Of a stretch of 64,000 nt of DNA, positions 3,055-63,358 are shown in pieces. The notes beneath the pieces were generated by a model. The model made no database searches. It was not told the origin of the DNA and worked only from the letters and a program-made list of their open reading frames with translations. Every line of letters begins with the position of its first letter. The first letter of the stretch is position 1. The translations under genes were made by a program, and so were the position numbers. Source of the DNA: Vicinamibacteria bacterium (GTDB lineage: Bacteria > Acidobacteriota > Vicinamibacteria > Marinacidobacterales > Marinacidobacteraceae); contig CAXXLQ010000004.1 of the NCBI GenBank assembly GCA_963668695.2, forward strand, positions 1,184,001-1,248,000, given 5' to 3'.

Positions 3055-3101
3055 GTTTCGCGGCCTGCGGCCGCGATGCCGGTCTGAAGACCGGCGGTCC
3101 C
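3055..3101 (-). repeat. REP-like palindrome (empty allele)
   Basis: Reverse complement reads GGGACCGCCGGTCTTCAGACCGGCATCGCGGCCGCAGGCCGCGAAAC; same family as 15092-15390, 46294-46319 and 63221-63245. Confidence 0.8.
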
Positions 3102-8105: not shown

Positions 8106-8110
8106 GCCGG

Positions 8111-8297
8111 CCGCGCCGTGAAACCGATGCCGCGCCGTGAAACCGATGTCGCGCCGTGAAACCGATGTCGCGCCGTGAAACCGATGCCGCGCCGTGAAAC
8201 CGATGTCGCGCCGGTGAAACCGACGGTCGGGACCGCCCGTGAAACCGATGTCGCGCCGTGAAACCGATGTCGCGTCGTGGAACCGATGCCGCGCCGG
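8111..8297 (+). repeat. Tandem repeat, ~9 copies of 19-bp YCGCGCCGTGAAACCGATG
   Basis: Units start at 8111, 8130, 8149, 8168, 8187, 8206 (variant), 8226 (variant), 8251 and 8270; no spacers. Confidence 0.9.
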
Positions 8298-12222: not shown

Positions 12223-13779
12223 TTACGCAGCGCCGGCCTGTACCCGGGCAGCGCGCAAACCCTTCCAGATGCTGTAGCACATGGCGATCAGCATCAGCGC
12301 GATGGGGAAGCCGGTGATGAGGGCGGCCGTTTGCAGCGCCACCAGCCCGCCGCTGATCAGCAGGGTGATGGCGACGATTCCTTCGAACGAACACCAGAAG
12401 ACGCGTTGAACGACCGGAGCGTCGAGCTTGCCGCCGGCGGTGATGGTGTCGATCACCAGCGATCCGGAATCGGAGGAGGTGACGAAGAAGAGGATCACGA
12501 GGACGATGCCGATGAACGAGGTGAGGTCGGCGAGCGGCAGTACCTCCAGCATCCGGAAGAGAGCCAGTTCCGGCTGCCCGGCCTGCACGGCATCGACCAT
12601 TCCGGTCTGCCCGTCGAGATGGAGCGACAGCGCCGTGGCGCCGAACGTGTTGAACCAGAGCGCGGTGAGCAGCAACGGGAGGACCAGCATGCAGCCGACG
12701 AGGCCGCGCACGGTGCGGCCGCGCGAAACCCGGGCGATGAACATGCCGACGAAGGGCGCCCACGAGAGCCACCACGCCCAGAAGAAGGTGGTCCAGCCGT
12801 GCAGGAAGTCGAAGTCGTCGCGGCCCACCCAGTTGCTGAGCGGTCCGATCGCCGCGAAGTAGTGGCCGAGACTGCCGACGAATCCGGCGAGCAGCTCGAG
12901 GGTCGGCCCGACCGCCAGCACGAACCCGAGCAGCAGCAGCGCGAGCACCATGTTGGCCTGGCTCAGGCGCTTGACGCCCTTGTCCATGCCCAGGACCACC
13001 GACGCCAGCGCGACGGCCGTGATGCCGGCGATCAGCAGCACCTGGGTCGTCTCGGTTGCGGGGACGCCGAACAGATGGTCCAGCCCCGCCGCCGTCTGCT
13101 CGGCGCCCAGACCGAGCGAGGTCGCCAGCCCGAAGAGCGTGGCGAACACGGCGAGGATGTCGATGACGTGGCCGACCGGGCCCCACACTCGATCGCCCAG
13201 GACCGGGTAGAACGCCGACCGGACGCTCATCGGCAACCCGAGGTTGTAAGCGGCGAAAGATAGAGCGACCGCGACCACCGCGTACATGGCCCAGGCGTTC
13301 AGGCCCCAGTGGTAGATGGCGGAGGCGACCGCCAGGCTCTGCACGGCGGCGGTGTCCGCGGTGTCCACCCCGAGCGGCGGACTCAGGAAATGATCGACCG
13401 GCTCGGCCACGCCGAAGAACATCAGGCCAATGCCGATCCCGGCCGCGAACAGCATGGAGAACCACGACCAGTTGGAGTAGTCCGGCCGGGCGTCCGGACC
13501 GCCCAGGCGGATGCGGCCGAGGGGTGTCGCCAGCAGCAGCAGGCAGAAGAGGATGAAGACGTTGCCGGCGACCATGAACACCCAATCGAACGTCGAGGTC
13601 AGCCAGGCGTACAGCGCGTCGAAGACGCCCGCGGCGGCGTCCCGGAACAAGAGCACGCCGGCAACGAAAGCGATGATGGTGAGGCTCGAGACAACGAAGA
13701 CAGGGTTGTGGATATCGAGGCCGAGGAGCCGGATGTTGTCGCGGCCGAGCTCGGAGTCGGTCTTCCGGGCGATGGCCAT
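12223..13779 (-). CDS. BCCT (betaine/carnitine/choline) transporter
   Basis: SWFSMLFAAGIGIGLMFFGVAEP, WTTFFWAWWLSWAPFVGMFIARVSRGRT, FFVTSSDS. Confidence 0.95.
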   Translation of the reverse strand: MAIARKTDSELGRDNIRLLGLDIHNPVFVVSSLTIIAFVAGVLLFRDAAAGVFDALYAWLTSTFDWVFMVAGNVFILFCLLLLATPLGRIRLGGPDARPDYSNWSWFSMLFAAGIGIGLMFFGVAEPVDHFLSPPLGVDTADTAAVQSLAVASAIYHWGLNAWAMYAVVAVALSFAAYNLGLPMSVRSAFYPVLGDRVWGPVGHVIDILAVFATLFGLATSLGLGAEQTAAGLDHLFGVPATETTQVLLIAGITAVALASVVLGMDKGVKRLSQANMVLALLLLGFVLAVGPTLELLAGFVGSLGHYFAAIGPLSNWVGRDDFDFLHGWTTFFWAWWLSWAPFVGMFIARVSRGRTVRGLVGCMLVLPLLLTALWFNTFGATALSLHLDGQTGMVDAVQAGQPELALFRMLEVLPLADLTSFIGIVLVILFFVTSSDSGSLVIDTITAGGKLDAPVVQRVFWCSFEGIVAITLLISGGLVALQTAALITGFPIALMLIAMCYSIWKGLRAARVQAGAA

Positions 13780-13998
13780 ACGGAATCGCTAAGCGAACCT
13801 GCGGATCAGTCGGAGATCCAGAGCTGCGGCCTCGCCGCATCGGATAGGACCGGGGAATACGCCAAAACCTGTCCCGTACGACGTACCGAAGCGGGCATTC
13901 CGATTTGCATCCTTCCACCCTTATGGTCAAAATATGTCATAGCGGCCGGGAACGCGGAGAACGACCCGCCGGAGATCAGGGGCCGCAGGGAGAGTCTC

Positions 13999-15075
13999 GT
14001 GGCCAGTTCGATTGCCCGCACCGCAACCCTTTTCCGCAAGCTGCTCAGCGGCAGGCGAATCACCTACCGGGAACTGGAGGACGAGGAGAGCATCAACCGG
14101 CGTACCGCGCTGCGTTGGATCGCGGAAGGGCGCCGCGTCTTCGGGGACGCACTGAAGGAGACAACCCGAGGCGCCGGAGAGAAGGAGTTCTGGCTGGACG
14201 CCACGGGGAACAAGTGGATCCATGGATTCAAGACCCAGAAGCCGAGCGCCGAGGAAATGGCGGCTCTGGATGAGATGCTGCGGTTTCTCAACAGCCAGAA
14301 CATGCACGACCAGCACGCCCGGCTGACGGGCCTGCGCAGCAAGCTGCACGGGGCGCTGGAGGCCCTCAAAGAGGCCCCCCGGGCCGACACGGATATTCAG
14401 GCGATCACGGATGCCTTCGGGATCGCGTCCCGGCCGGGTCCCCACGTGCCGGTCAGCGAGAACGTGACGGCGCCCCTCAGGGAGGCCATCCTGAAACAGC
14501 ACAAGGTCGCCTTCCGCTACCGCGCCGGGACCGGTCAGGAGAAGGACAAAGTGGCGGAACCGGCGGGCCTGCTCTACGGCGGGGCCCCGCGCCTGGTCGC
14601 TCGGGAGAACGAGGAGAGGGGCCTCGCGCAGTACCGCCTCGACCGGATGAGCGGCGTCGAGGTCCTGGACGAGGGGCATCGCCTCCCGGAGGACGCCCTC
14701 CAGGGCTACCTCCACACGCTGTTCGGTTCCTTCGGAGAAAAACCGGTGAACGTCAGGTGGCGGTTCCACCCCGACGCGCCCGAGCCCGAGAAGTGGACCT
14801 TCCACCCGACCCAGAAGGTCGAGAAGAAACCCGACGGTTCCGTCATCGTCAGTTTCCGCGCCGGCGGCCTGGACGACATGGCGCGTCACGTGATCGGCTG
14901 GTGGGACTGGATCCAGGTGGACAAACCGGCACAGTTGCGGAAGGCCATCCTGAAGATGCGGCTGGCCGGCCTCGCCCCGCTGCTCTACGAGTTCGCCGAT
15001 CAACGGACGGCGACCCGCATCTGGAACCTTGCCGTGGAACTCGGCGCGAACAAGGTGGACGACTGGTGGGAGTGA
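13999..15075 (+). CDS. WYL-domain transcriptional regulator (HTH-WYL-WCX)
   Basis: GTG 13999 after AGGGAG; N-terminal HTH (INRRTALRWI), EPAGLLYG...YRLDRM, WTFHPTQ, WCX-like tail. Confidence 0.85.
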   Translation: MASSIARTATLFRKLLSGRRITYRELEDEESINRRTALRWIAEGRRVFGDALKETTRGAGEKEFWLDATGNKWIHGFKTQKPSAEEMAALDEMLRFLNSQNMHDQHARLTGLRSKLHGALEALKEAPRADTDIQAITDAFGIASRPGPHVPVSENVTAPLREAILKQHKVAFRYRAGTGQEKDKVAEPAGLLYGGAPRLVARENEERGLAQYRLDRMSGVEVLDEGHRLPEDALQGYLHTLFGSFGEKPVNVRWRFHPDAPEPEKWTFHPTQKVEKKPDGSVIVSFRAGGLDDMARHVIGWWDWIQVDKPAQLRKAILKMRLAGLAPLLYEFADQRTATRIWNLAVELGANKVDDWWE

Positions 15076-15091
15076 GCGGGATGGCGCACTT

Positions 15092-15390
15092 GGGAGCGCC
15101 GGTCTTCAGGCCCCCACCGGGAAAACTGGCCAGCATCGCGGCCGCAGGCCGCGAAACTCCCATCGCCAACCACGAAAAAGCGCGGGGACGGCTTGGAGCG
15201 CCGGTCTTCAGGCCCCCACCGGGAGAACTGGCCAGCATCGCGGCCACAGGCCGCGAAACTCCCATCGCCGACCGCGAAGAAGCGCGGGGACGGCTAGGAG
15301 CGCCGGTCTTCCGGCCCCCACCGGGAGAACTGGCCAGCATCGCGGCCACAGGCCGCGAAACTCCCATCGCCGACCGCGAAGAAGCGCCGG
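15092..15390 (+). repeat. Three tandem 102-bp REP-like units, each carrying the 19-nt insert
   Basis: GGAGCGCCGGTCTTCAGG[CCCCCACCGGGARAACTGG]CCAGCATCGCGGCCRCAGGCCGCGAAAC...; inserts at 15111, 15213 and 15315. Confidence 0.9.
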
Positions 15391-15490
15391 GCTAGTTTGC
15401 CCCGGTTTATCGGACCAGTAGGAACGGCCGAAACGCCGGTTCGCGCCGGCCCCGGGAGTTGTTCTTCGAAGTTCGCGGGGCTCTTGACGG

Positions 15491-16225
15491 TTAGCGCTTT
15501 CCCGGCACCATGGGGACGAAGGCGACTCCTCCGTGGTCCTGAATCTCGATCTCCCCGTCTGCGCCGCGGGTGGCGACCACGAGGCGCTGACTCCACGGAT
15601 CCGGCCCGACCGGCGCCACCAGCCGTCCCCCCGGGGCGAGCTGATCGAGGAGCGCCTGCGGGAGCTCCGGAGGCGCCGCGGTCACCACGATCCGGTCGAA
15701 AGGTGCGGCTTCCGGCCAGCCGAGGTAGCCGTCACCGACCCGGAGCTGGATGGACTCGTACCCGAGGTCGCGGAGGGTCGTTTCCGCCCGGGCGCCGATC
15801 CTCGGCAGCAACTCGATGGACCAGACCTCCGCTTCCAGTTCGGCGAGCACCGCCGCCTGGTAGCCGGAGCCGGTCCCGATCTCAAGGATCCGCGTCCCCG
15901 GGGTGATTTGCGCCAGCGAGCTCATCAGCGCCACGATGTAGGGCTGGGAGATCGTCTGCCCCTCGCCGATCGGGAGTGGGCGGTCGGAGTACGCCCGGCT
16001 TCGCTCCGACGCGGGGACGAACTCCTCCCGGGGCACCGTCTGCATGGCCCGCAGCACCGCCTCGTCGCGGATGCCGCGGCGTTCGATCTGGTTCCGCACC
16101 ATCAGCAGCCGTTCTGCCCGGAAGGCGTCCTCCTGTCCGCTGTTCCCGCTCGCTCCGTCGCTGCCGCAGGCGGCGGCGAGGAGGGTCAGGGCCGCAAGCG
16201 CAGCCGTTCGGACACTGCACCTCAT
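15491..16225 (-). CDS. pcm: Protein-L-isoaspartate O-methyltransferase with lipoprotein-type signal
   Basis: VPREEFV, GQTISQPYIVA, LEIGTGSGYQAA, GDGYLGWPEAAPFD; N-terminus LLAAAC. Confidence 0.92.
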   Translation of the reverse strand: MRCSVRTAALAALTLLAAACGSDGASGNSGQEDAFRAERLLMVRNQIERRGIRDEAVLRAMQTVPREEFVPASERSRAYSDRPLPIGEGQTISQPYIVALMSSLAQITPGTRILEIGTGSGYQAAVLAELEAEVWSIELLPRIGARAETTLRDLGYESIQLRVGDGYLGWPEAAPFDRIVVTAAPPELPQALLDQLAPGGRLVAPVGPDPWSQRLVVATRGADGEIEIQDHGGVAFVPMVPGKR

Positions 16226-16256
16226 AGAGATCCCTCCAGCTGCCGCCAAGTCTAAA

Positions 16257-16392
16257 CAACCTGTGGACAAAGCCACGCGGCCCAGTTCTCCCGGTGGGGG
16301 CTCCTCCCTCACGCGCCTTGTCAGCCGGGCGCCTCGCCCCCACCGGGAGGACTGGCCGCTCTCGGCGCTCACGTGGCTTTGCCCACCGGCTG
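16257..16392. mobile_element. MITE copy with internal deletion and two 19-nt inserts
   Basis: Ends CAACCTGTGG / CCACCGGCTG; body aligns to 44429-44607; inserts at 16282-16300 and 16337-16355. Confidence 0.75.
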
Positions 16393-18045: not shown

Positions 18046-18277
18046 CAGCCTGTGGTGGAACCCGGGTGAGCGCCGAGGCCGGCGAGGCGCCCGGTGGGGG
18101 CGAGGCGCCCGGCTGACAAGGCGCGTGAGGGAGGAGCCCCCACCGGGAGAACTGGCCCGAGTGTATTTCGACCGAAACGCAACGCAGAGCGCCGCAAAGC
18201 GGCAGTTCTCCCGGTGGGGGGCGGTTCAGCCGGGATGCATAGCTGGCCGGACGCCGCGCCATGTCGTCCACGGACTG
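18046..18277. mobile_element. Full-length MITE copy with two complete and one partial 19-nt insert
   Basis: Starts TTAG|CAGCCTGTGGTGGAACCC; colinear with the reverse complement of 44429-44607 except at 18090-18100, 18137-18155 and 18204-18220. Confidence 0.85.
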
Positions 18278-23023: not shown

Positions 23024-23095
23024 GAACGCCGGCCAGTTCTTCCGGTGGGGCTTCACACCGGCATCGCCCGCCCGCCGGGCGGGCGAAACCCGCGC
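23024..23095 (+). repeat. REP-like unit with inverted insert
   Basis: GAACGCCGG[CCAGTTCTTCCGGTGGGG]CTTCACACCGGCATCG versus the empty allele GCGCCGGTGTTCACACCGGCATCG near 63311. Confidence 0.75.
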
Positions 23096-23112
23096 GTCGC
23101 TCGCTCGGGCGG

Positions 23113-26100
23113 CTACCTCCCCCCGAGCACCTCCCGCGCACGCCGGACCTGCTCCTCATCCCCCGCCCGGGCGGCGGCTTCCAGCAGACCCCGATAGAGG
23201 TTGAGGTCCGTGGGATCGCGGTCCACCGCCTCCCGGTAGAGCCGGACCGCCTCTGAGGGGCGTCCCGACGCCAGCTCGAAGGCCCCGAAGTTCGCCCAGT
23301 GGAACGCCGGGCCCGGCGACTGCGCGACGAGGTTCGAAAAGGCTTCCCGCGCCTCGGTCGTCCGTCCGAGTTCCGCGAGCGCCACCGCCCGAACGCGGAG
23401 CGCCCGTTCCGTCTCCGGCCGGGCCGCCAGGATGGCGGCGGACTGTTCGGCGGCTTCCTCCGCCCTGCCGCGGCGCACGCTCAGCTCGGCGAGCCAGGCC
23501 GCCGCCTCCGCATCCTGCGGGTCGCTTCCGAGCACCGCCAGCACCAGCGCCTCGGCGGAGTCCCAGGCGCCGCGTTCGACCTGGACTTCGGCTGACAGGA
23601 GCAGCGCCTCGCGATCCTCGGCCAGCTCGGCCGGTCCGCCCTCGAGTACCGCCGCCGCTTCGTCGGGCCTGCGCGCCCGCAGCAGGAGCTGGGCGAGCGA
23701 AACGGTGAGCGCCCGCGCGGTCTCGCTCGCCGCTGGAACGGTCCCCAGCGCGGCCCGCAGGGCTTCCGCACCCTCTGCCGCCCTGCCGCTCGCCAGCGCG
23801 GCTGCACCAGCCGCCGCTGCTGCGCTTCGGTTCGGCGGGATCGAGTTCGAGCGCCTGCCGGGCCAGCTCGAGCGCCCAGTCCGGGTTCTGGGCGGAGAGG
23901 AGTCCGGCGGCGCGGCCCGCGAGCCTTCCGGCGTCGGGTGAAGGCGCCGGCCCGAAGGGCCCGAAAGGCGGTTCCGAGGCGAGCCGCTCGAGCGCCCGGC
24001 GGTTTTGGAAAGCGGTGGTGGCGTGGACGGACAGCGGCGCCCGGAACTCCAGGATCGGATGGTCGTCCCGGTGCCGCGGCGCCCCGGCGGCCCAGGCTGC
24101 CAGTTCCGGACCCGCCGCCGTAAGCCAGCCGCGGAGCGCACGGAAGTCCGTGATGCCGTAAGGGGCGAGCTCGTCAGCCAACCGGGCGATGCGGGGCTCG
24201 ATATTGCGCCCCGGAACCGGCGGGAACGCCCCGTTCGAGCCGATCAGCAGCGCGTCCCCGTCGTGGAGCACGAAGAGCACGGCTTGCGGGAAGACATCGG
24301 TGAACCCGCCCACCACCGTCCGCAGGCTCTCCTCCGCGAGGTTGTAGAGGTGGATCCACTGGCAGAAGAGGCCGCCGTCCTTGAGCCGCGAGCGCACCAG
24401 CTCGAAGAACTCCACCGTGAAGAGCGGTGAAACGCCGCTCATCCAGGGGTTCGACGGTTCCGAGATCACGACATCGAACGAATCGCGGGAGAAGAGCAGG
24501 TGGTTCCGCGCGTCCACCTCCAGGAGCGAAAAGCGTTCGTCCGCCCACGGCGCACGGTTGCTCTCTCCGAAGAGCCGGGACGCCTGCGCCACCTCCGGGG
24601 AGATTTCGGCGGCGGTCACCCGCTTTACCCCGTGCCGGAGGGCGGCGCCGGCGGTGACCCCGCTCCCGTGTCCCACGATGAACACCGAGTCCGGCGCGGG
24701 GTGGAGGAGGAGCGGCAGGTGCGCCAGCATCCGCTGCGTCAGCATGTCCGCCCCGTCGGTCGCGTCCACCTTCCCGTCGATGGCGAGCGAGAGTTCGCCG
24801 CCCACCTCCTTCACGGACACCGTCGCGGCGGCGCCCTGCTCCAGGAAGCGCAGCTCGCCCCGGCGCAGGAAGTCCCGGTGGCGGGAAACCTCCATCTGCG
24901 GCGCAACGCGGTAGAGCCCGCCGGAGAGCGCCTCCCAGTCCCAGGATGCCGTGGCGCCGACGCCGAAGGCAGCAAGCGAGCCGGCGAACAGCAACGTCAG
25001 GACCCGGGGCTTCGCCACGAGCGCGGCCGCGAGCTGGGCGAGCACGGCAGCGAGCAGCGCCGCCTCGATGCCGAGCCAGGGGATGATGAGGAAACCCGCC
25101 GCGAGCGCGCCGAGTACGTTCCCGCTGGCGTTCGTCGCGTAGATCGTCCCGGTGGCGCGCCCGGCGTCTCCGGCGGAGGAACCGCCGGAGGTTGCGGCGC
25201 CCCCCACCGCCAGCGGAAAGGTGGCGCCGAAGGCGAGGCCGGGCAGGAGCAGCACTGCCGCGGTGCCCAGGAACTGGAGGTTGAGGAGGTGCGGCACGTC
25301 CGCGGCGTTTTCGGCGACCAGTTCCCCGATCGGGAGCACGAGACGGCTTCCGAACCACGCGACGGCGGCCGAAGCGGCCGCTCCCCCGAGCTGGACGATC
25401 GCCAACCAGGTGCGGGCGCTTCCGCCGCCGCGCCACCGCTCCGCGAGTCGCCCGGCGGCCGCGCTGCCGAGCGCGACCCCCAGGATCACCGACGCCACCA
25501 CGCAGGCGAAGGTGTAGATCGTGGGCCCGAAGAGCAGGGAGGCGAGTCGCGCCCAGCCGATTTCGGCGGCCATCGCGGCGAACCCGGAGAGCGCCGCGAT
25601 CCCGGAGAAGGGCGCCGTCCCGCGCCCTCCGAACCACGGGCCCCGGGTTGCCTGCGGGAGGCTCCCGGCCGGAGCCCTGCCGAAGCGGGTCCACACCAGG
25701 ACTCCGGCCAGCAGGTTTGCGGCGATCCCGCAGACCGAGGACCCGGTGAGGCCCAGTTCGGGAATCAGCATCCGGGCGGCGGCCACGCTCCCGATGAGGG
25801 CGCCCACGGTGTTCACGGCATAGAGCCAGCCGGCGGCGCCCGCTTCGCCGCGGTCCCGAACCCGGCGGCTGAGCGCGGTGAGCGTCGGCAGGGTGGCGCC
25901 CATCAGGGTGGCGGCGGGCAGGAGGAAAAGAGCGGCCAGCATCGCGGTGGGCGCCAGCGCGCTCTCCGGGGTCGCCGCCGCTCTGACGAGGGGCACGGTT
26001 CCGGCCAGATAGAGCGGCAACCCCGCCGCGAATCCCGCTGCCCCCAGTTCCAGGACCAGGAACCGTCGCGCCAGCCGCGCGGCCCCGAGTCTTCCGCCCG

Positions 26101-28547: not shown

Positions 28548-28712
28548 CATCCTGGCTGAACCGCTTCGCTCATCGTTGCGCGTCGGTCGAAATACACCAG
28601 GGCCAGTTCTCCCGGTGGGGGCTCCTCCCTCGCGCGCCTTGTCAGCCGGGCGCCTCGCCCCCACCGGGAGAACTGGCGCTCTCGGCGCTCGCGCCACTTT
28701 ACCCACGGACTG
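28548..28712. mobile_element. Partial MITE copy with two 19-nt inserts
   Basis: Aligns to 44470-44607; inserts at 28603-28621 and 28658-28676. Confidence 0.75.
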
Positions 28713-30126: not shown

Positions 30127-31322
30127 ACTTCCGTCGGAACGCCGCCAGTTCTCCCGGTGGGGGCCTCCGAACGGAATCGCCCGCTACCGGCGGGCGAAAC
30201 CGCGTACGGCTGTCCGCCCGCGGGGCGCCGCTTTCCACCGAGGCTCCCGCGGAGTTCAACCAGGAGCTCCGCGCCTACGAGCAGGTCGCGAAGTTCCAGC
30301 GCTACCGGCTCGCGGAGGGCGCCGAGGAGGAGTTTGACGAGGACTTTGTCCTGAATCCGTGCGATCTGTCGCTGCTCGGTTCGTCCCGGGCCGCTGACCG
30401 CGAGCGGTTCAACCGGGACCTCGGCGAATCACTGGAGGACACCGGCTTTGCGATCCTCGCCGGACACGGGGTGGACCCGGCGCTCTACGCGGAGGCCCAC
30501 CGCCGGACGCGGGAGTTCTTCGAAAGCCACGCGCTTGAGGAGAAGCTCCGCTACCGGGCGCGCCGGCAGGGTTCGGTGAACCAGGGTTACTTCCCGATGC
30601 GGGAAACCACCATGATCCACCCGGATCTCGTGGAGGGCTGGGTCTTCTGCCGCCGGGCCTTCGATCTGGGGGAGGACCCGGACTGGGACGAGGCGGCGTT
30701 TTGGCCCTCGCCGGGGTGGGAGCCCTTCTTCCGGCGGGTGGTCCAGGCCCACGAGCGGCTGATCCACCCGATCATGCGGTCCGTTCTCTCGTACCTCGGC
30801 GAGGATCCCGCGCTCTTCGACGAGCGGCTCACCGCTACCAACTTCGGCTTCCGGCTGAACTACTACCCGGCGATGACCGACGTTCCGGAGGGGACCACCG
30901 GCAGGATGCTCGGTCACGAAGACGTGGACCTCTTCACCATCCTCCCCGCCGCCGAGACCGAGGGCCTGCAGCTCCTCCACCGCAAGACCATGAAGTGGGT
31001 GCGGGTGGCCGCCCCGCCGGGCACCATCGTGCTGAACACCGGCGACTACATGCAGCGGATCACGAACAACCGGCTGCCGTCCACCACCCACCGGGTGAGC
31101 GCGCCCCGCGACCCCGCCGCGCGGTCGCAACCGCGAACCTCGTTCCCGATGGCGATCTACGTCTGGGAGGACGACCTCCTCGAAGTTCTCCCGAACCAGG
31201 GCGCCCCGCACTACCCCCCGGTCCGTGCCGAGGACTTCCACACCCGCATCACGAGCAAGTACTACGGCGACAGCTACCACACGACCGGCGAAGAGGGCGC
31301 CGTCTCCCGCCGGGTGCGCTAA
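30123..31322 (+). CDS. 2OG-Fe(II) oxygenase, isopenicillin N synthase family; start uncertain
   Basis: GFAILAGHGV, RLNYYP, HED (HxD), GLQL, STTHRV, RTS. Confidence 0.88.
   Translation: MNFRRNAASSPGGGLRTESPATGGRNRVRLSARGAPLSTEAPAEFNQELRAYEQVAKFQRYRLAEGAEEEFDEDFVLNPCDLSLLGSSRAADRERFNRDLGESLEDTGFAILAGHGVDPALYAEAHRRTREFFESHALEEKLRYRARRQGSVNQGYFPMRETTMIHPDLVEGWVFCRRAFDLGEDPDWDEAAFWPSPGWEPFFRRVVQAHERLIHPIMRSVLSYLGEDPALFDERLTATNFGFRLNYYPAMTDVPEGTTGRMLGHEDVDLFTILPAAETEGLQLLHRKTMKWVRVAAPPGTIVLNTGDYMQRITNNRLPSTTHRVSAPRDPAARSQPRTSFPMAIYVWEDDLLEVLPNQGAPHYPPVRAEDFHTRITSKYYGDSYHTTGEEGAVSRRVR
30136..30203 (+). repeat. REP-like unit with inverted 19-nt insert (30145-30163)
   Basis: GGAACGCCG[insert]CCTCCGAACGGAATCGCCCGC...GGCGGGCGAAAC, parallel to 23024-23095. 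Confidence 0.65.
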
Positions 31323-35844: not shown

Positions 35845-35931
35845 CAGCGAAGCGGCGTGGTTCGGGCGGGATGCATCGCCGGCCGAGCCCCCACCGGGAG
35901 AACTGGGCCGCGTGGGTTTTGCCACAGGCTG
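35845..35931. mobile_element. Internally deleted MITE copy with 19-nt insert (35888-35906)
   Basis: CTAG|CAG...GCCACAGGCTG|CTAA. Confidence 0.7.
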
Positions 35932-46293: not shown

Positions 46294-46319
46294 GCCGGTC
46301 TGAAGACCGGCGGTCCCGG
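46294..46319 (-). repeat. REP-like palindrome (empty allele)
   Basis: TGCCGGTCTGAAGACCGGCGGTCCC. Confidence 0.75.
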
Positions 46320-58754: not shown

Positions 58755-58795
58755 GGAACGCCGACCTCTGGCCAGTTCTCCCGGTGGGGGCTCCG
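58755..58795 (+). repeat. REP-like hairpin with inverted 19-nt insert (58772-58790)
   Basis: GGAACGCCGACCTCTGG[insert]C versus the empty GGAACGCCGACCTCCGGGCGGC near 22267. Confidence 0.65.
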
Positions 58796-63220: not shown

Positions 63221-63358
63221 GGGACCGCCGGTCTTCAGACCGGCACCGCTCCCCGACAGGGGAGCGGACCCGCGCATCGCTGAGAACGAAGAAGCGCGGG
63301 GACGGCGGGAGCGCCGGTGTTCACACCGGCATCGCGGCCCGGTAGGGCCGGGAAACGC
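63221..63358 (+). repeat. Two REP-like palindromes (empty alleles)
   Basis: GGGACCGCCGGTCTTCAGACCGGC and GGGAGCGCCGGTGTTCACACCGGC. Confidence 0.75.

Follow-up and report, generated by a model that had tools for sequence, protein, structure and literature searches.

The DNA analysed here (the window, 64 kb) corresponds to G000:C4:1184001-1248000, where G000 designates a genome of 4.10 Mb with a G+C content of 67.5% that is 91.7% complete. Between a WYL/WCX-domain gene and an unnamed gene, the window contained a tandem REP array on the + strand with a period of 102, 2.9 copies and 95% matches (Tandem Repeats Finder). The units of this array were mutually different at 6/102, 7/95 and 2/95 positions. 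Each unit contained a hairpin, GCCGGTCTTCAGACCGGC, which was interrupted by the 20 nt sequence GCCCCCACCGGGAGAACTGG. The core of this insert was an 18-mer, CCCCACCGGGAGAACTGG, which we have designated M; hairpins that carry it are referred to as filled and those that lack it as empty. The unit read GGAGC-GCCGGTCTTCAG-(GC CCCCACCGGGAGAACTGG)-CCAGC-ATCGC, then a second hairpin and GAAAC, with a 40-nt tail behind them. The features of the array and its two neighbours were as follows:

13309-15075, + strand: WYL/WCX-domain gene, left neighbour of the array
15093..15391, + strand: REP array, 2.9 units of 102 bp, first hairpin filled in all
15110..15129, + strand: unit 1, GC+M as the variant GGGAAAAC within the 3' arm of the first hairpin (15098-15134)
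15135..15157, + strand: second hairpin of the REP unit, ATCGC-GGCCGCAGGCC-GCGAAAC
15212..15231, + strand: unit 2, GC+M within the 3' arm of the first hairpin (15200-15236)
15314..15333, + strand: unit 3, GC+M within the 3' arm of the first hairpin (15302-15338)
15533-16255, + strand: unnamed gene, right neighbour of the array

The base of the second hairpin (TCGC/GCGA) was conserved among REP units and its upper stem was variable. The frame ATCGC...GAAAC was kept while the upper stem and loop varied yet remained paired, and 83 distinct versions were found in 125 framed REP units. Elsewhere in the window, empty REP hairpins and further copies of M were found at these positions:

3078..3095, strand not applicable: empty REP hairpin GCCGGTCTGAAGACCGGC
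16282..16355, strand not applicable: inverted M pair inside a TA-inserted MITE
18138..18219, strand not applicable: M+ and M- within MITE-family sequence
23028..23062, - strand: TTCACA-type REP hairpin, left arm with inverted M, GCCGG-CCAGTTCTTCCGGTGGGGC-TTCACACCGGC
28603..28676, strand not applicable: inverted M pair inside a MITE; G001, G008 and G004 lack the stretch at the orthologous site
30140..30176, - strand: CTCCGA-type REP hairpin, left arm with inverted M; the ortholog is filled in G004 and empty in G001
35889..35906, + strand: M at MITE site C (..CCGAGC-M-GCCGCG..)
46294..46311, strand not applicable: empty REP hairpin; the orthologous site of G001 is likewise empty
58772..58789, - strand: M adjoining GCCGACCTCTGG, in a REP/MITE-like context
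63227..63330, + strand: pair of empty REP units 86 bp apart (hairpins 63227-63244 and 63313-63330)

An earlier note on this DNA had claimed that the REP hairpins were interrupted by the same insert at symmetric positions, and the same module was indeed present at the same place in both arms. Its placement of the motif just before CCAGC in the right arm was seen in all three 102-bp units, and the inverted left-arm motifs that it had described at 23033 and 30145 were both present, with the CCAG end of M joined to GCCGG or GCCG. The MITE junctions had been said to join to CCG/GCCG-like bases; MITE-resident copies of M were followed by CC or GC and then by C/G-rich bases, in agreement with this. 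The three empty REPs that it had placed at 3078, 46295 and 63227 all existed, although the second lies one position earlier, at 46294. The intact hairpin GCCGGTCTTCAGACCGGC occurred at these three places and a variant, TGTTCACA, was found at 63313. All three units of the array shared the same junction, including the CCAGC variant, and the proposal that a filled unit was later amplified is the simplest reading of the triple array.

The REP copies of the window were located between genes. The empty hairpin had 7 strand-matches at 4 places (0.01 expected; 7 reached in 0/100 shuffles) and M, with up to 3 mismatches, had 14 copies (0.22 expected; 14 reached in 0/100 shuffles). Folding of the empty hairpin gave -8.1 kcal/mol (z -4.85), and none of 200 shuffles folded as well. 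The filled hairpin gave -4.9 kcal/mol (z +0.6), and 145 of 200 shuffles folded as well. In these folds, filling by M abolishes the REP hairpin. A search of the window against Rfam gave no family that reached its gathering score. A MITE of ~150 bp was found at the TAA stop codon of the gene at 15533-16255 (window position 16253); it was absent from the orthologous site in four of five relatives (G001, G008, G004 and G009), and the fifth, G010, had unrelated DNA there. Additionally, window positions 8110-8296 held a tandem array of the 19-nt unit GCCGCGCCGTGAAACCGAT (9.5 copies, 84% matches), and at the intergenic point matching window positions 23032-23113, beside the filled REP at 23033, G001 had ~12.5 kb of extra DNA.

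Analysis of the whole G000 genome revealed 1679 copies of M with up to 3 mismatches, 1288 of which were exact. Sorting of the 1631 copies with up to 2 mismatches placed 963 at five recurrent sites of a MITE family of ~290 bp, 293 at junctions between M copies joined head to tail, 106 in type 1/2 REP hairpin arms, 30 in the type 3 hairpin (GCCGACCTCCGGTCGGC) and 13 next to REP hairpins; the remaining 226, mostly variants of MITE site C, were left unsorted by the rules applied. The intact hairpin GCCGGTSTKMASACCGGC had 103 exact copies. The flanks of M were unique in only 2/1631 copies, both of them REP-like, and M was otherwise confined to repeat contexts. This absence from unique DNA fits descent and conversion as well as it fits a structural target requirement. 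For annotation purposes, M accounts for the variable interior of this MITE family in sponge- and marine-associated Acidobacteria of this kind. Head-to-tail runs of at least 4-5 units of M with no spacer (18-nt period) were present at G000:C4:2280951-2280987 and 1097379-1097415.

Approximately 270 kb of the G000 assembly was doubled at 98.4-99.7% identity, representing strain variants or haplotigs, and these doubled parts fit the contamination figure of 9.3%. C1 paired with C4:304-421 kb, C3 with C4:3505-3538 kb, and the head of C4 with the tail of the same contig. Because of these duplicates the whole-genome repeat counts are slightly inflated; the half-arm spans, junction strings and second-hairpin counts were taken from C4:150001-3663787 only, with the duplicates left out.

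Two candidate sources for M were rejected at the genome level. No master gene with M in unique DNA was found among the 1631 copies, and the long multi-copy repeats that were inspected for an insertion sequence with M at its ends were satellite arrays. Such short-unit arrays were located at G000:C4:121800, 423900, 574200, 975900, 1573800 and 2329500. An apparent truncated M of 12 nt proved to be an artefact of the alignment and had 0 copies in the genome. The orientation of M showed no overall bias with respect to replication strand or replichore in G000; this lack of bias, unlike what is seen for single-strand transposons, counts against reading M as an insertion module. In G018, M seemed to be strand-biased, but this stemmed from the listing order of the places.

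The junctions of M were analysed by tracing 330 half arms (GCCGGT[CG]T) to their closing CRGC. This revealed 210 spans of 10 nt, which are empty and represent ~96 palindromes, and 78 filled spans (59 of 29 nt and 19 of 28 nt, that is +18 or +19 nt); the other 42 had other lengths. These span classes show that the insert has one size and one place. Alignment of the empty and filled REP, GCCGGTCTTCAG-A-CCGGC and GCCGGTCTTCAG-GCCCCCACCGGGAGAACTGG-CCGGC respectively, demonstrated that 1 base is replaced by 20. On the other strand the same replacement read GCCGG-T-CTTCAG and GCCGG-CCAGTTCTCCCGGTGGGGGC-CTTCAG. The replaced base is the A of G-A-CCGG (the T of CCGG-T-C on the opposite strand), and in REP stems the CTGG end of M was always joined to CCGG. 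The type 3 hairpin, GCCGACCTCCGG-T-CGGC, followed the same A-to-20-nt rule in its right arm (CCGG-T-CGGC). As M is reversed relative to the arm in this hairpin, the constant is the sequence G-A-CCGG and not the arm.

The direction of M was also locked. Among the 30 commonest junction strings there were 77 REP cases, all of them M+ in the 3' arm, following the 5' half arm; the junction test gave 5 M- matches, 0 of which were at the M+ junction. Two hairpins carried M in both arms. A palindromic stem offers an asymmetric site once per strand, which accounts for the mirror positions and for the arm-locked direction of the insert.

The MITE family displayed comparable two-state sites. Site C read CGA-AC-GCCGC when empty (171 of 479) and CGA-(20 nt)-GCCGC when filled (208 of 479), with AC replaced, and site 1 read GGAGGA-ATA-CC when empty (156 of 390) and carried a 21-nt form when filled (229 of 390), with ATA replaced. 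At site 2, 151 of 457 copies had no M, 139 had one, 96 had two and 38 had three, and site 2b (TC-A-CCG) obeyed the A-to-20-nt rule as in REPs. Site 4 was empty in 134 and filled in 13 of 156 copies. A further site was present at the left border of the REP (GGA-GC-GCCGG against GGA-(20 nt)-GCCGG). Throughout all site classes the CTGG end of M was joined to (G)CCG(G), whereas the opposite side had lost A, AC, GC or ATA, a total of 1-3 bases. This asymmetry suggests an insertion step that would be anchored on the CCGG side.

The ends of M are complementary over 3 bp, GCC...GGC (unit GC+CCCCACCGGGAGAACTGG). A second allele in which both end bases are exchanged (GG...GC for GC...GG), so that the 3-bp complementarity is retained, was found in type 1 and type 3 hairpins. 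The table of end bases (1249 / 31 / 30 / 9) gave an odds ratio of 143 by Fisher test, but the copies of M are related and not independent, so that the counts and the test overstate independence. As excision footprints, the G-variant of the empty hairpin was rare, at 5+2 of 330 half arms.

The idea of targeted, direction-specific insertion put forward in the earlier note is largely right, and the pattern is real and non-random. The note had set random insert positions with no flank preference against its idea; the positions are non-random and do have a flank preference. A fill of +18 or +19 nt was carried by 78/330 half arms. Its more specific proposal, strand-specific targeting of GC stems, survives in part. 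Direction is locked to the arm (77 M+ against 0 M- at the junction), but what the sites share is a short sequence rather than a GC stem as such: M is joined to (G)CCG(G) also at the left border of the REP and at MITE sites that are not palindromic.

Comparison with relatives extended these observations. Exact M was present in 15/15 genomes of the same genus and in 2/3 other genera of the family, which makes 17 of 18 family genomes with M. The 12 genomes from two neighbouring families, the unpublished G027 among them, gave no match. Copy number within the genus ranged from 8 to 1566, the latter in G000. The hairpin type of the window was confined to the genus (8/8 sampled genomes, against 0/12 in the family's other genera). 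M had other hosts in other genomes: G016 carried it as GCCGGTGAGGAGC-M-CCGGC, and in G007, G012 and G015 it was located in the loop of the second hairpin. G018, which belongs to another genus, contained 44-nt arrays (C1:62093-62374) in which M alternated with a different REP hairpin, GCCGGACTCCAGTCCGGC, and each M was bracketed by a 14-nt duplication of a hairpin arm.

The orthologous intergenic region of the array contained 0 to several REP units of differing types in 12 relatives. The closest of the genomes compared was G001, with 92-97% identity over most aligned blocks. Neighbouring units of an array in G001 were otherwise near-identical and read GCCGG-T-CTCCGACCGGC (empty) and GCTGG-(20 nt)-CTCCGACCGGC (filled). 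At site 30145, G000 and G004 were both filled and had the same second hairpin and the same odd junction, in which GCCG is joined directly to CCAG, whereas the hairpin of G001 was intact. Since G001 is the closer relative, this distribution requires templated restoration or allelic exchange and not insertion alone. At a second orthologous site G008 was filled and G004 empty. At two more orthologous sites G001 and G004 both carried M, and the copies of the two species differed from each other by 1-2 bases.

The degree of conservation of M depended on its host. It was exact in 53/106 copies in REP arms and in 293/313 copies at MITE site 1. We read this pattern as probable recent spread and neutral decay and not as conserved function; as the REP copies decay like neutral DNA, no cell function is implied for M.

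The evidence on whether the fills arose by repeated events or by descent points both ways. Right-filled REP units had 13 distinct second hairpins among 20, and left-filled units had 29 among 36. The second hairpins of filled units also occurred with empty first hairpins. This diversity shows that the filled REPs are not one clone. Additionally, at least 10 host positions carried M with the same ends: both arms of type 1/2 REPs, the type 3 hairpin, the REP left border, positions upstream of hairpins, the other REP type of G018, the second-hairpin loops of G007, G012 and G015, and MITE sites 1, 2a, 2b, C and 4. Linked junction variants were also found, as GAAGGG occurred with CTGC and with CCAG, and CCAGC was present in nearly all right-arm fills; filled hairpins therefore also propagate as units.

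The doubled parts of the assembly provided a further comparison. Their alignment at 98.4-99.7% identity contained 124 indels in 273,093 aligned columns. Six of these were 18 nt long, and five of the six were units of M, which made M the main mid-size indel. One of them, at C1:44543 (18 nt), had ends without microhomology. All five were inside MITE copies and none was in a REP, which counts against the insertion-module reading. The filled and empty orthologs, the array units, the MITE sites and these indels suggest that M has moved, although conversion could also have produced such differences.

The earlier note had pointed to RAYT nucleases and to IS110-family elements as enzymes that act on REPs, and the genome was searched for both. 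No match to a Y1 transposase, RAYT or IS200 was found in G000, the genome being 91.7% complete. In contrast, weak Y1_Tnp matches, 1-2 in each genome, were found in 13/15 genomes of the same genus. The Y1_Tnp proteins of G010 and G008 scored 95.9 and 88.9 bits respectively against NF047646, the NCBIfam equivalog for REP-associated tyrosine transposase (cut-off 80), and matched PDB 4ER8 (E. coli TnpA-REP) with an E of 4e-6. The RAYT gene of G010 had 6 hairpins of the window type upstream and 9 downstream in inverted orientation, and that of G001 was likewise flanked by 7 + 8 such hairpins in inverted orientation. As a RAYT gene is flanked by the same REPs in relatives, the REP label appears right; the search yielded no RAYT in G000 itself. 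Judged by this gene context, the host hairpins appear to be true RAYT-type REPs, in a genome where their transposase was not found. The RAYT genes of G010 and G001 have 30 such hairpins around them, and M had filled none. The place in G000 that is syntenic with the RAYT genes of G008 and G001 (G000:C4:2178540-2182720) held ~4.2 kb of other DNA, with neither RAYT nor REP array, and included a cluster of MITE units with 13 copies of M.

G000 encoded one intact IS110, with a 415-aa protein containing DEDD and Transposase_20 domains. This element was located at G000:C4:482107-483880 inside a REP hairpin (GCCGACCGGAGGTC-IS-AGGTCCGGC), with two M-filled REPs just upstream. Its insertion point in the type 3 REP (GGAGGTC-...-AGGTCCGGC) was at another position than that of M. 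The element and M had 8 7-mers in common, where random windows gave a median of 11, and no common stretch of more than 8 nt. Additionally, counts of IS110 and M were unlinked, as G014 had 10 IS110 and 87 M and G000 had 1 IS110 and 1566 M. An IS110 or bridge-RNA origin of M, which the earlier note had suggested examining, was rejected on these grounds: there is a single IS110, it occupies another REP position, it contains no M-like stretch and its counts do not follow those of M. A route by reverse transcriptase or TnpB was also rejected, as G000 gave no match to reverse transcriptase (RVT_1) and no TnpB over the cut-off, the sole zinc-ribbon match being below it.

On balance, we lean towards M being a discrete insertion module of 18-20 bp that has been written into a few sequence-defined sites of hairpin-forming repeats. 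The insertion step would be fixed at the (G)CCG(G) border and imprecise at the opposite border, with a loss of 1-3 bases, and it may be carried out in trans by a putative enzyme acting on single-stranded or folded DNA. The processes that copy the host repeat would then spread and rearrange the filled units; they may include recombination among copies, movement of the TA-inserting MITE, the spread of REPs and tandem amplification of the kind seen at 15093-15391. Weighing against this reading are the lack of a RAYT/IS200, reverse transcriptase or above-cut-off TnpB match in G000, the near-absence of M from unique DNA, the linked junction variants and the templated replacement required at 30145. 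A history with no M-specific mobility, in which a few old chance events in REP and MITE founders were followed by subfamily amplification and by conversion or allelic recombination, is conceivable, if rather unlikely. Such a history would sit well with the linked junction variants, which define subfamilies, with the unique-DNA flanks of only 2/1631 copies and with the restriction of the M indels between duplicates to MITE copies; the filled unit at 15093 was plainly amplified whole, and templated replacement is needed to explain why G001 is intact where G000 and G004 share an odd junction. It fares less well with the 10 or more host positions that carry M with the same ends, with the end-swapped allele in two REP types and with the indel at C1:44543, which lacks microhomology at its ends. 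The flanks shared by filled and empty REPs, at ~10 nt per side, are also short for homologous conversion. The stronger form of the insertion-module reading, in which M would be a true transposable unit of ~20 bp with covarying complementary 3-bp ends, (G)CCG(G)-anchored joining and a trans-encoded enzyme (for example one with HUH/RAYT-type chemistry or an undescribed nuclease-ligase), we hold only tentatively and regard as unlikely. If it were true, few known mobile DNA elements would be as small as M, and M would offer a tractable model for the movement of repeats of the type of the small dispersed repeats (SDRs) of cyanobacteria.

Two further explanations are less probable. An IHF site is the extra motif of the BIMEs of E. 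coli, and M could similarly be an additional motif in a BIME-like mosaic, bound by a protein or acting in regulation, that selection keeps for a cell function. The exact 18-mer does recur across the genus and in two further genera, M accompanies differing REPs in differing genera, and the modular mosaic resembles BIMEs as we understand them. However, copy number varies from 8 to 1566 in one genus, only 50% of the copies in REP arms are exact, M diverges at shared sites about as fast as its surroundings, it has no orientation bias and it destroys the hairpin of its host, all of which makes a selected site improbable. Similarly improbable is the explanation of M as a footprint or by-product of an element that targets REPs, either a bridge-RNA-guided IS110/IS1111 or a RAYT acting on REPs. 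RAYT reportedly cuts and joins single strands beside REP hairpins, RAYT genes are flanked by the same REPs in 13/15 genomes of the genus and the one intact IS110 lies inside a REP hairpin. Against this, the IS110 joins the REP elsewhere and lacks any stretch resembling M (8 7-mers in common; random median 11), IS110 counts do not track M (10/87 in G014 and 1/1566 in G000), G000 and G004 are rich in M and gave no RAYT match, and 0/30 of the hairpins flanking the RAYT genes of G010 and G001 were filled.

The host hairpins have the properties of REPs, being short, extragenic, imperfect palindromes in high copy number with BIME-like arrays. REP and BIME elements with RAYT, and REPINs, are described in PMC3116915, and the host hairpins resemble them as extragenic palindromes in arrays that flank a RAYT-type gene in relatives. 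M differs from these elements as a 20-nt module inside the palindrome that is part of no described REP, in a genome, G000, without RAYT. REP hairpins, usually treated as units, can thus be inactivated in place by a smaller element, and ~45% of the hairpin type of the window was filled in a genome where the REP transposase was not found.

Insertion sequences that target REPs (the IS110/IS1111 family and IS1397) have reportedly been described, and M is like them in its site- and orientation-specific insertion into REP stems. Unlike IS110/IS1111, M has no gene, is ~90x shorter, occupies another position of the stem and shows no likeness to the IS ends; the 20-nt M contains neither the DEDD gene nor the matching ends of that family. 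M resembles MITEs as it is non-autonomous, intergenic and present in high copy number, and most copies ride inside a MITE. In contrast to the terminal inverted repeats and target-site duplication of MITEs, the inverted ends of M are only 3 bp, 1-3 target bases are replaced and none is duplicated, and the target is not TA. M is also several times smaller than the smallest MITEs. Its range of 8-1566 copies within the genus and its confinement to REP and MITE contexts do not correspond to a DNA uptake sequence. A search of the literature on Acidobacteria and on nested inserts in REPs found nothing like M.

The closest known kind appears to be the SDRs of cyanobacteria, a likeness of kind and not of family. 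SDRs are reportedly repeats of 21-27 nt in Nostoc and its relatives, and to our knowledge dispersed repeats of ~20 nt have been reported as possibly mobile with no mechanism known. As SDRs are said to be, M is ~20 nt long, highly uniform, non-coding, present in very high copy number, nested in other repeats and present or absent at otherwise matching sites. Its copies are near-identical and dispersed, with 1288/1679 exact. Where they are cited in PMC3116915 and PMC2884548, SDRs are termed very small mobile repeated elements. M is found in another phylum and measures 18-20 nt, and no sequence likeness to SDRs is claimed for it; it also differs from them in having a defined (G)CCG(G) junction, in replacing 1-3 bases and in breaking the host hairpin instead of extending it. 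The anatomy of M is unusually clean: a single module of fixed polarity obeys a junction rule that can be read off, and its two-state sites exist in hundreds of copies. Closely related genomes as well as assembly duplicates differ by single units of M. This combination makes the mobility of ~20-nt repeats, for which SDRs are the closest parallel, testable.
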